Position numbers and translations under genes: made by a program
Source of the DNA: Holophagales bacterium
Lineage (GTDB): Bacteria > Acidobacteriota > Thermoanaerobaculia > Multivoradales > JAGPDF01
Length of the DNA stretch: 64,000 nucleotides
Assembly: GCA_016699405.1 (NCBI GenBank)
Contig: CP064972.1
Coordinates: 2,696,165 to 2,760,164 of the forward strand
Direction: 5' to 3'
Notes under the pieces: model-generated
Seen by the model: the letters and a program-made list of their open reading frames with translations, nothing else
Told to the model about the DNA's origin: nothing
Database searches by the model: none
Part shown: positions 15,335 through 20,224 of the stretch, one piece after another
Layout of the letters: each line of letters opens with the position of its first letter
How positions within the stretch are numbered: position 1 is the first letter of the stretch

Positions 15335-18300
15335 TCAGCTCGTCGCCTCGCCCGCGCGCGCCATGCCGCGTTCGAGCGCCTCGATCAGCCACGGCCGGAG
15401 TCGTGCCGCCGGGATGATCTCGTGCACCGATCCGACGCGCTGGGCGCGCGAGACGTCGTGCACGCGGTCGTACTCGGCGGCAACCTCGCCGAGCTTCTCG
15501 GAACGCACGATCTCGGTCGCCTCGGCGAGGCGCGCCCGCACCGCGGCGCGGTCCGGGCAGGCCGGATCGGCGAGCGCCTTCTCGAGCTCGGCGACCCGCG
15601 GGTCCTTCTTGGTGCGCTTGTCGACCTCCCGGGCGAAGACCACCGCGGCGGCCGGCGCGCCGCCGATGACCGAGGCGTAGCTGCCCTCGAGCGCTGCCAC
15701 CTGCATGTTGTCGTGCAGCGCGCCGGAGAAGACGACGAAAGCGCCGCCGTGGTAGCGCGAGACGACGACGAAGACGATCGGCCCCTTGAAGTTGACCACG
15801 GCGCGGCCGATCTCCGCTCCGTATTCGAGCTGGCGGTTGCGCATCGACTCCGGCGAGCCGTCGAAGCCGGAGAGGTTCGCCACGACGACGAGCGGCCGCG
15901 AGCCGCTCGCCGCGTTGATCGCCCGGGCGATCTTGCGCGACGCCTGCGGGAAGAGCGTGCCCGACGTCCACTGGTCCGGGCCGTAGGCGGGGACCCAGCC
16001 GAGGCGGGGGAGCGGTCGCGATTCGAAGCCGAGCAGACACACCGGCTGGCCGCCCAGGTGAGCATCCCAGACGACGCCGGTCTCGGCGTCGCGCATGGCG
16101 AACCAGCGCTCGAGCGGCTCGTGGTCCTGGTCGGTGACGGCACGCATCACGCGGCGGATGTCGAAGGGGCGCTTGCGGCCCGGGTTCGCCGCGTCGGAGA
16201 AGATCTCGCCGACGGTGACGAACTCGCCGCCGTGCGGGAACGGGCGCACGTCGCGATCGCGCGGATCGCTGCTCGCCGCCGGCCGCGGGAAGCGCTCGCC
16301 GGGTGCGACGTAGGCGTGTTCGTAGTGGGCCATCAGGATGCGGCAGGCCTCGCCCAGGTCACGGGCGAAGTACTGCGCCTGGCCGTTCGGCCCCATGATC
16401 CGCTCGTAGCCGCCGATTCCCCAGTTGTCCTCGGCGGAGACGCCGCCGGAGTAGTCGAGCGCCTGCTTGCCGGTGAGCACCATGGCGCCGTCGGGCGTCA
16501 TCACCAGGATCCCGCGCGTGTGCATGAGCATCGTCGCTTCGGCGTTCCAGTACGGCTGGGCGCCGACGTTGATGCCGGGGACGAGGATGTTGACCTCGCC
16601 GCCGCCCTGGGTGAACTCGATCAGCCGTCGCAAGGTGAGGGCGATCCAGTCCATGTTCTCCGTCCCGCTGTCCATGGCGATCTTCGCGCCCGCCGAGAGC
16701 GCCACCCACTCGAGCGGCACGCCCATGCGCTGCGCGAGGTCGAGGGCGGCGTTGATGCGCCGGCACTCCGGCTCCGCGAGGGCTCCGAGCCCGCGGCTGC
16801 CGTCGCCGAGCACGATGACGCGCGCCATCCCCTCCGGGTAGCGCGCGGTGAAGCTGCGGATCACCCCGACGACCACGTTCGCGGTGTTGCCACCGGCAGG
16901 CCGCTCCACGGCGACCAGGTCGCCGCTCGCGTCGAGATCGTGTTCGACGAACTTGCCCGGCGGGATCCCGGAGCTCGCCTCTTCCGCGGGCGGAGCGAGC
17001 AGGCGCAGGACCTCGTAGGCGTAGGGAACGCCCCGACGCTTCAGCTCGACGACCTTCTGCGCGTATTCGCCGAGCGGCGCGAGCGGCTCGACGGAGGGGC
17101 GCCGGAAGCGCACCACCTGGTCGCCTTCGCCCGGACGCTGGACTTCGAGAACCCAGTCGGCCGGCGCTTCGGCGGCCGCCCCGGGGGCGCGGAACTGCAC
17201 CACGACCTTCTCGAGACCGAGGCCCGCGGCGAACGGCGCCAGGCGATGGACGATGGCGCGCAGGTCGTCGCGCCGCATCAGCGTGGCCGGCCAGAGGTAG
17301 AGCAGCACGCGGTTCCACGGCAGGCGCTGGGAGGCGCTGCGGCGCGACTGGGCGCGGCGGATTCCGGCGAGGGCTTCGTGGTAGGCCCGCTCGAGTTGCG
17401 GCAGGGCGACGACCCGGCCGCGCGCGTCGCGCAGCGCCGTCATGTCGCGCACTTCGGCGAGGGCGAAGAAGCGCTCGTCCTTCGGATTGCGATGGGCGAC
17501 GCCGCGGAAGAGGCGAACCTCGCTCGACGACTCGAGTTGCTCGAGGGCGAAGTTGCGCAGCCGCCAGACCTGCAGCCGCTCGGCGATCATCGGGTGGAGG
17601 CCGCGCGAGGGGCGATCCTCGGCGAGCTTGCCGTTCTCGTTGCGGCGGAAGGTGAAGAGGCGCGAGTGCCCGGGCGAAGCGAACGAGACGGCGAGGCGCC
17701 AGAGGTCGTTCGGGAGGCGGTGCTCGTCGAGCCAGGTGGCGATCGCCGCAGCGAGGGCGTCGTCGTCCGCGGTGGTCGGCTCACCCCAGAGGAAGAGATC
17801 GACGACGATCTGCAGACCGCGGGCCGTGGCCTGCTCGGCGAGGATCAGGGCGCGATCGAGCGAACCGCGCAGGTCGGCGGCCGGCCCGTGCGTGGCGACG
17901 ACGTGGATGCGGCCGATGCGGTGGTCGTAGTCGGCCGTCGCCGACTCCGAGGGCGGCCCGACGGAGGTCAACACTTCGCCGAGCGGTCGGACGCGGTAGA
18001 AGCGACGGAGCATGACCTCGAGCATCTCGGCCCGCAGGCGCGGGCTGGCGTCGGCCAGGCGCAGGGCGAGCCAGGCGTGCAACGACTGCGGACACTCGAC
18101 GAGAGCGCGGCGCGCCGCGCCGTGATGCCCGTCGTCGGCCGAGGCGAGCGTGGCGAGGTCGGCGCCGGCGCGCGCCAGCAGGCGCTCCCGCTCAGCGAGC
18201 AGCAGGGGCCGGTCGAAGAGGCGGTAGGAGAGCTCGCGCGCCGAGTCGAAGACCGCGGGCTCACGGTCGCGGCTCTCGGCGATCAGCCGGTCGAGCAGCG

Positions 18301-20224: not shown

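Follow-up and report, generated by a model that had tools for sequence, protein, structure and literature searches.

A Holophagales homolog of single-chain acetyl-CoA carboxylase that keeps its biotin site and carboxyltransferase and has lost a competent biotin carboxylase

A 64,000-nucleotide stretch of the genome of a Holophagales bacterium (contig CP064972.1, positions 2,696,165–2,760,164; hereafter the window) encodes a 1629-aa homolog of the eukaryote-type single-chain acetyl-CoA carboxylase (ACC) in which the biotin carboxyl carrier protein (BCCP) domain and the carboxyltransferase (CT) are retained, while only ~240 aa of the biotin carboxylase (BC) remain, from Escherichia coli AccC position ~207 on. 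Judged by its residues and its modeled structure, this remnant appears to be catalytically dead but folded. The truncation is a conserved state and not an artefact. It stands third in a row of four genes read in the same direction, which encode an acyl-CoA dehydrogenase (ACAD), a polyketide synthase (PKS), the ACC homolog, and a 4'-phosphopantetheinyl transferase (PPTase). In our view the best explanation, to which we assign a probability of about one half, is a BCCP–CT module that relies on a stand-alone BC, for example AccC, to carboxylate its biotin in trans.

RESULTS

Domain anatomy

The product consists, in order, of a pseudo-BC, a BC–CT interaction (BT) domain, a BCCP, a central domain (CD), and a CT (Table 1). 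In a search of PDB sequences, the closest solved relative was yeast ACC (5csk/5csl, 1.8e-36), with the order BC-BT-BCCP-CD-CT, and phmmer aligned the BT region with yeast ACC 425–731. Of the parts that make up a single-chain eukaryote-type ACC, the CT, the CD, the BT, and the BCCP with its MKM motif were all found; a complete and competent BC was not. An earlier note on this DNA, made from the letters alone, had proposed the eukaryote-type domain order, with the BCCP, central, and CT domains retained and the gene set in a PKS operon, and the Pfam matches, the PDB matches, and the operon genes bear this out. From its sequence, the polypeptide alone is predicted to be incapable of ATP- and bicarbonate-dependent carboxylation of acetyl-CoA. 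It is probably biotinylated at K418, and the reaction of its CT is probably the carboxylation of acetyl-CoA.

Table 1. Genes of the operon and domains of the ACC homolog (positions in the window; residues of the ACC product)
Feature	Position	Strand	Residues	Remarks and basis
Acyl-CoA dehydrogenase family gene	28904..30589	-		First operon gene; upstream of the PKS in many loci; Pfam
PfaA-like iterative PKS, ~2880 aa	20221..28872	-		KS-AT(GHSLG..HAFH)-CLF-like KS-ACP x3-KR-DH; Pfam, motifs
Shine-Dalgarno-like GAGGAG	20230..20235	-		5 nt before the ACC ATG; sequence read directly
Single-chain ACC homolog gene	15335..20224	-		Start ATG 20224-20222, stop TGA 15337-15335; open reading frame and translation, Pfam, NCBIfam
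Pseudo-BC	19475..20191	-	~12-250	BC C-domain fold, complete; counterpart of E. coli AccC ~207-445
CPSase_L_D2 match			11-129	Pfam; profile positions 91-209 of 211 only, 30 bits
Biotin_carb_C match			145-248	Pfam
BT domain	19085..19474	-	~251-380	Long helix and beta-barrel; AlphaFold2 secondary structure, 5csk superposition
BCCP	18860..19084	-	~381-455	Motif E415-A-M-K418-M-E; Pfam Biotin_lipoyl
Biotin_lipoyl match			386-449	Pfam
Biotinyl-lysine codon	18971-18973	-	418	EAMKME at residues 415-420
Linker and CD	16985..18859	-	~456-1080	Pfam ACC_central; ~625 aa alignable to full-length homologs
ACC_central match			853-947	Pfam; 30.4 bits vs cutoff 23.2
CT	15338..16984	-	~1081-1629	Pfam Carboxyl_trans; best PDB matches yeast and human ACC CT
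Carboxyl_trans match			1132-1574	Pfam; 4.3e-31
4'-Phosphopantetheinyl transferase	14571..15317	-		Last operon gene; GTG 15317 after GGGAG; Pfam ACPS 5e-16

The biotin carboxylase remnant

Both the NCBIfam BC models and PDB 1bnc aligned with the product only from their positions ~205–207 on, residues 12–245 of the query matching 1bnc 207–437. With the domains of E. coli BC, which we take to be N (1–103), B (131–203), and C (208–449), the survivor corresponds to the entire structural C-domain, and the N-domain and the B-domain lid are gone. Missing from the window protein are Biotin_carb_N and the front half of the ATP-grasp, together with K116, K159, and the Gly-rich loop. The absence of the N-domain and the Gly loop had been correctly noted before (there is no Biotin_carb_N match, and CPSase_L_D2 aligns from profile position 91), and the truncation stands after a profile-HMM search for an intact N-terminal ATP-grasp, which found none. 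The earlier estimate that only the last ~110 aa of the BC are present was too low, since the PDB alignment and the model described below extend over ~240 aa and the whole C-domain fold. Similarly, the residues before the motif HAVLSARDP do lack an N-domain and a Gly loop, as had been stated, but ~130 of them correspond by homology to the latter half of the ATP-grasp.

An AlphaFold2 model of residues 1–470, for which 36 truncated homologs were aligned, had a mean pLDDT of 87.9 and a pTM of 0.79. By Foldseek, the modeled remnant superposed on the C-terminal part of stand-alone BCs with an rmsd of 1.7–1.9 Å over ~245 columns, and the BC C-domain, BT, and BCCP together superposed on yeast ACC (5csk) with an rmsd of 3.2–3.5 Å over ~400 columns.

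To map the catalytic residues, homologs (30 full-length, 39 truncated) were aligned over their N-termini with E. coli AccC as guide; the guide sequence was checked by its match to a full-length homolog (39% identity, 3e-103) and by its agreement with the 1bnc alignment. In the window protein, 8 of the 9 catalytic positions of the C-domain are substituted (H209R, K238T, E276V, E288S, N290R, R292G, E296S, and R338V), and E211 is the only catalytic residue kept. Across the 39 truncated homologs, K238, E276, N290, R292, Q294, and R338 are replaced, and K116, K159, and the Gly loop region are absent together with the N-terminal part. By comparison, K116, K159, the Gly loop, H209, E211, Q237, K238, E276, E288, N290, R292, Q294, E296, and R338 are essentially invariant in all 30 full-length sister-clade proteins. 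The window remnant is also more diverged than the rest of its clade, with 37% vs 55% identity in the ATP-grasp remnant, and unlike those of loci L001 and L002 it gave no tblastn match to E. coli AccC at E<1. No BC N-half was found in any frame of the 64-kb window, nor in L001 and L002. A split BC complemented by a separate N-half was thus ruled out, as no gene for such a half was found and the catalytic residues of the remnant itself are gone.

The start of the gene

The ATG at 20224 shares the letters ATGA with the stop codon of the upstream PKS, an overlap that suggests translational coupling. The mechanical open reading frame reaches 20836, and the stretch beyond the ATG is an out-of-frame shadow of the PKS: the GC content at third codon positions (GC3) of the ACC frame is 0.90 within the gene and drops to 0.54 ahead of the ATG, a region in which the PKS frame reaches 0.88. 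Identical public proteins exist (P0001/P0285; NCBI QQR72117.1, "biotin attachment protein [Holophagales bacterium]", on a 5.22-Mb contig), and because the NCBI product has the same 1629 aa, an independent annotation uses the same start. In both locus L002 and locus L004, the homologous start is preceded, 20 codons upstream, by an in-frame stop. A true start hidden in another upstream frame, for example behind a frameshift, which the earlier note had named as the way in which the truncation could prove false, was sought and ruled out: the upstream sequence is the DH domain of the PKS in the other frame, as its GC3 indicates, no frame of the window showed BC homology, and the stops in L002 and L004 and the NCBI start also contradict it.

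Conservation of the truncated clade

The homolog search returned at least 38 clusters (90% identity) of 1526–1668 aa that are 56–62% identical to the query, none of them with Biotin_carb_N (PF00289), and where names exist they are named Thermoanaerobaculia or Acidobacteriota. The sister group (Terriglobia/Terriglobales; 1820–1916 aa, ~50% identity) has a complete BC. Of the columns that are invariant in the sister clade, the truncated clade keeps 94% in the CT, 80% in the CD, 75% in the BCCP, 69% in the BT, 52% in the BC C-domain segment, and 28% in the ATP-grasp remnant. The best-conserved part is the CT, with 81% identity within the clade and 71% across clades. All 36 truncated and all 40 full-length proteins compared have the biotinyl-lysine (E-A/T-M-K418-M/V-E), and in the truncated clade it has stayed invariant while the proteins diverged to ~57–60% identity. 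Related loci were collected by a scan of one genome per species, which found >600 relatives, of which 80 loci were kept, with contents determined by tblastn with the window operon proteins and the BC N-half; among the loci kept, all those of the Thermoanaerobaculia type are truncated.

Only one pair of truncated genes, L001 and L002, has unsaturated synonymous divergence (dS ~0.38). For this pair, dN/dS was 0.155 in the BC remnant, 0.14 in the BCCP, and 0.11 in the CT, and 0.11–0.29 over all domains. The value for the remnant indicates that the dead domain is under purifying selection, as a maintained pseudo-domain rather than a decaying sequence. The comparison between the window and L007 was uninformative, its synonymous sites being saturated or biased at 72% GC.

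Recurrent loss of the biotin carboxylase in the operon

The BC has decayed in this operon several times independently, by lid deletion, half deletion, and complete deletion. Three loci have no BC remnant at all. L050, from the metagenome-assembled genome (MAG) of an Acidobacteriaceae, has a 1439-aa open reading frame (9935–14254) that begins with the BT domain directly after the PKS stop; L086 (P0040; 10001–14215), whose operon is intact and translationally coupled, encodes a protein of 1404 aa with the order BT-BCCP-CD-CT; and in L020 (~9900–14079) the gene also directly follows the PKS and has one frameshift near 10651, possibly a long-read assembly error. Two further proteins, P0037 and P0116, keep only the Biotin_carb_C part. 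In a neighbor-joining tree of the CT with 100 bootstraps, the half-BC clade, within which L020, L086, and P0037 are nested, was monophyletic in 94/100. L050 lies inside the full-length Terriglobia, grouping with the full-length L014, L012, and L022 in 100/100, and P0116 lies within the Terriglobia core in 99/100. The remaining domains of L050 have an omega of 0.06–0.17, the same as pairs of full-length relatives.

An exhaustive search of 50%-identity representatives, from which only near-full-length entries were used because many were fragments, revealed a further class of ~1760–1820 aa. In these proteins (P0128, P0139, P0166, P0175, P0177, P0178, P0207, P0212, P0234, P0240, P0183, P0199, and P0260), the N- and C-domains of the BC are kept, the B-domain lid with the Gly loop is gone, and the catalytic residues are degenerate; with the exception of P0240, all have kept the xMKx biotin motif. 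Where named, they are from Polyangiaceae, Blastocatellia, and Anaeromyxobacteraceae. In both contexts seen (L087, Polyangiaceae MAG, and L088, Blastocatellia MAG, each 10001–15385), the lid-deleted ACC gene is part of the same four-gene operon. On the CT, the lid-deleted forms were monophyletic in 0/100 bootstraps, deep nodes being weak and the number of events uncertain. P0149 (1855 aa), whose cluster has a member named Polyangiaceae, has a full-length BC with a dead site (K116R, Gly loop SAGH, E211G, K238T, E288G, N290D, and R292C). No clear signature of convergent BCCP substitutions, as a sign of a new BC partner, was seen in the BC-dead lineages.

The operon and its neighborhood

The likely start of the PKS is M62 of an open reading frame that opens at 29055. 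The motif GHSLG..HAFH of its AT is the malonyl-CoA signature of such domains, and a CLF-type domain like the one next to it makes the starter via decarboxylation of malonyl-ACP. The same AT motif was present in 16 of 16 synthases checked, whatever the BC status of the adjoining ACC. The PPTase gene is conserved downstream of the ACC gene in related loci. The arrangement is that of a "Type R" secondary lipid synthase, in which a pfaA homolog (KS-MAT-CLF-ACP(3-6)-KR; the second KS-like domain was termed CLF by the same authors) precedes a PPTase and, in Koribacter, an ACC gene separates the two (Shulse and Allen 2011, PMC3098273). The upstream ACAD gene and the C-terminal DH domain are extra here.

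The rest of the window consists of ordinary chromosomal genes, including those for pyruvate kinase, Ffh, serine dehydratase, and AdoHcy hydrolase, and a Pfam scan of the window genes found no acc genes elsewhere in it. Two kinds of partner known from other biotin enzymes were looked for: no membrane carboxybiotin decarboxylase (beta) subunit was found in the operon, among the Pfam-scanned window genes, or among the neighbors in related loci, and no second CT of the 5S/pyruvate type (HMGL-like TIM barrel) was found in the protein or in neighboring genes.

Upstream of the ACAD gene are a 549-aa open reading frame without a Pfam match (30688–32337, minus strand) and a 338-aa one with a weak match to an IS200-like transposase (Y1_Tnp; 32467–33483, minus strand); the GC content falls to ~0.67–0.70 around 32–40 kb. 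On the plus strand, the stretch 54414–61938 holds a WYL/HTH regulator followed by paralogs of 1037 and 1017 aa with CarboxypepD_reg/SdrD_B-like repeats, and its GC content of ~0.66 is below that of the rest of the window.

Related loci

The ACAD-PKS-ACC-PPTase operon is found in Terriglobia, Vicinamibacteria, Solirubrobacterales, Acidimicrobiia, Myxococcota, and others, most of which carry an ACC with a complete BC. Because the BC is intact in these sister operons, the ancestral role of the operon was presumably ATP-dependent carboxylation. In Rhodococcus, Pseudonocardia, and Modestobacter, a full-length homolog occurs without the PKS, as does Saccharopolyspora erythraea SACE_4237.

Half-BC genes without an adjoining PKS were found in L002, L005, L006, L084, and L085. 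Neither a PKS nor a PPTase gene accompanies the truncated ACC gene within 10 kb in L002 (10001–14947), L084 (4016–8935), and L085 (10001–14962), and the neighborhood of the last is variable, with the toxin-antitoxin-like genes HicB, HipA_2, and Barstar. These lone genes hint at a synthase-independent role or at gene mobility. In L001 (2058–10000), a Thermoanaerobaculia-type contig, ~8 kb separate the PKS from a truncated ACC-PPTase pair; this stretch, with genes for Abi_C, PIN, and FGE-sulfatase on the opposite strand, is apparently an insertion into the operon. The PKS-ACC operon occurs twice in the Acidobacteriaceae MAG MFD05705.bin.3.155, on separate contigs (L039 and L040). The copy in L039 has a shorter match to the BC N-half (171 in-frame codons upstream), possibly a partial deletion.

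DISCUSSION

According to the explanation that we favor, the window protein would be a biotinylated BCCP–CT module on a eukaryote-type ACC scaffold (BT-BCCP-CD-CT), with its own BC reduced to a dead, folded C-domain. Its biotin would be carboxylated at the expense of ATP by a BC encoded elsewhere, either the housekeeping AccC or another BC-containing subunit, and its most likely product would be malonyl-CoA for the adjoining malonyl-specific PfaA-like synthase. The single-chain ACC would in effect be back to a two-component enzyme, and, as in two-component systems, CT and BCCP are found here on one polypeptide without BC activity. BC is a substrate-agnostic component that is shared between carboxylases in actinomycetes, and because it can be shared, the BC of the operon may have become redundant and decayed; its repeated loss fits redundancy with another BC. 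Taken together, the constraint on the CT and the biotin site, the repeated loss of the BC, and the intact BC in sister operons with the same synthase make carboxylation in trans the most economical reading, under which the operon would still need ATP-dependent formation of malonyl-CoA. Similar divisions of labor are known: MccB, a CT from a PKS cluster, works with the BC-BCCP (alpha) subunit of primary metabolism (PMC5187497), and in the two-subunit pyruvate carboxylase a separate BC subunit serves a CT-BCCP polypeptide (PMC3199775). A published survey also records a canonical ACC-type BC in Acidobacteria (PMC3199775).

Several points weigh against this explanation. The BC partner is hypothetical, and apart from the ACC genes themselves, tblastn with AccC found no BC gene in the 64 kb of the window or in 88 related loci with 10 kb on either side. 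AccC is normally complexed with its own AccB and might not accept a BCCP that is part of a 160-kDa protein. Redundancy alone does not account for the purifying selection on the dead C-domain in the half-BC clade. The half-BC genes that are unlinked from the PKS may point to a PKS-independent role, and the CT and BCCP may be used independently of ATP.

This last possibility, which we hold as tentative and clearly below even odds, is an ATP-independent shuttle, in which the CT and BCCP would move a carboxyl group from malonyl-CoA (or another carboxy-acyl-CoA) to biotin and then to a second acyl-CoA or to CO2. The protein would be an acyl-CoA:acyl-CoA transcarboxylase, or a biotin-dependent malonyl-CoA decarboxylase making, for example, acetyl starters. 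Such a shuttle is chemically possible, the partial exchange reaction of ACC requiring only CT and BCCP, and both K418 and the CT catalytic core are conserved. A BCCP and a CT without BC are the composition of biotin transcarboxylases and decarboxylases (PMC3199775), and SACE_4237 can use acetyl- as well as propionyl-CoA, a breadth that ping-pong transcarboxylation at a single CT site requires. The lack of a nearby BC gene in any locus and the uncoupling of some half-BC genes from the PKS also agree with it. However, the orthologous operons keep an intact and strongly constrained BC with an unchanged PKS (HAFH), so that a switch of chemistry limited to some lineages is less parsimonious than carboxylation in trans. 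Neither a 5S/pyruvate carboxylase-type second CT nor a membrane beta subunit (Na+ pump) accompanies the protein, the CLF-like domain of the PKS would normally supply the starter from malonyl-ACP, and decarboxylating malonyl-CoA beside a synthase that consumes it would be futile. The earlier note had preferred a transcarboxylase or decarboxylase, for instance in priming. With no partner genes, a malonyl-type AT, and an intact BC in sister operons, we found nothing in favor of this preference beyond the domain composition, and the alternative that it offered, pairing with a BC from elsewhere, is more parsimonious.

A more far-reaching version, which we regard as rather doubtful, is that the eukaryote-type ACC scaffold has been repurposed repeatedly, in several phyla, into an ATP-independent biotin enzyme serving the PfaA-like synthase, the dead C-domain having a structural or regulatory role. 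If true, this single-CT transcarboxylase or soluble malonyl-CoA decarboxylase would be a class of biotin enzyme not described so far.

Improbable, in our judgment, is the borrowing of BC activity from a full-length single-chain ACC paralog through heterodimerization, by the CT dimer or the BC C-domain, so that the intact protomer would load both BCCPs. Homologs of the family are indeed homodimers (yeast ACC 5csl; SACE_4237, PMC6491548), the purifying selection on the pseudo-BC C-domain and the BT in the half-BC clade would be sensible for an interface, and some MAGs have two operon copies (L039 and L040 in the same MAG). Against this, no full-length paralog was found in genomes of the Thermoanaerobaculia clade among the loci kept, all of which are truncated there, and L050 and L086, which have no BC remnant, sit in intact operons. 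There is a similarly small chance that the protein is a pseudoenzyme without catalysis, serving the synthase as scaffold, biotin sink, or regulator that binds malonyl-CoA, or that its gene is being lost: one catalytic domain is clearly dead, the window remnant has diverged beyond its clade and escapes detection with AccC, and L020 has a frameshift, but the identity of the CT within the clade and its retention of invariant columns, the invariance of K418 over such divergence, and a dN/dS of 0.11–0.16 for the CT and BCCP would be unexpected for a scaffold or a decaying gene.

Among known systems, single-chain ACCs are regarded as self-sufficient enzymes with three activities, and to our knowledge SACE_4237 is the only bacterial one that has been characterized. 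It is an essential, homodimeric, multidomain acetyl/propionyl-CoA carboxylase (Livieri et al. 2019, PMC6491548). The window protein shares its family, the order BC-BT-BCCP-CD-CT, the ACC-type CT, and the MKM biotin site, a likeness drawn from Pseudonocardiaceae/actinomycete loci that are ~46–48% identical. In contrast to the window protein, which is without the N- and B-domains of the BC and without the catalytic residues of its C-domain and lies in a PfaA-like operon, SACE_4237 has a complete BC, is self-sufficient, and is not linked to a PKS. The eukaryotic ACCs (yeast 5CSL/5CSK and human ACC1) are the best PDB matches in sequence and fold and share the non-catalytic central domain, but the window protein is ~600 residues shorter, has no functional BC, and is bacterial and encoded in an operon. 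The full-length PKS-linked ACCs of Terriglobia and other phyla, including that of the Koribacter Type R cluster, belong to the orthologous operon (~50% identity overall and 71% in the CT) and differ in their length of 1820–1916 aa and in keeping every BC catalytic residue.

The two-subunit pyruvate carboxylase and the multi-subunit ACCs resemble the window protein in the proposed mode of working, a separate BC serving a CT-BCCP, and PDB 5ks8 was among the fold matches. Unlike it, they have a CT of the TIM-barrel pyruvate type or one split into AccA/AccD, the BC gene is usually adjacent, and none has a vestigial BC or a central domain. GcdA/MmdA with their BCCP, and the 12S/5S/1.3S enzyme of P. 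shermanii, combine a crotonase-fold CT with a BCCP and have no BC, but they need a membrane decarboxylase subunit or a 5S CT, neither of which was found here, and their CT and BCCP are separate small proteins instead of parts of a 1629-aa ACC scaffold.

Both the full-length family and, since 2011, the operon type have been described; what appears to be new is the BC-defective single-chain form. In open-access papers and preprints, we found no description of single-chain ACCs with a missing or degenerate BC and no report of the product of the ACAD-PKS-ACC-PPTase operon. Annotation of such genes as "acetyl-CoA carboxylase" or "biotin attachment protein" conceals a functional difference: a whole clade, together with independent lineages, has dropped or killed the ATP-using domain while the biotin site and the CT have been kept under strong constraint. 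If the biotin is carboxylated in trans, this would represent the fission of a single-chain enzyme and would bear on the evolution of the eukaryotic ACC architecture and on the engineering of malonyl-CoA supply. Otherwise, the scaffold would support ATP-independent carboxyl transfer.

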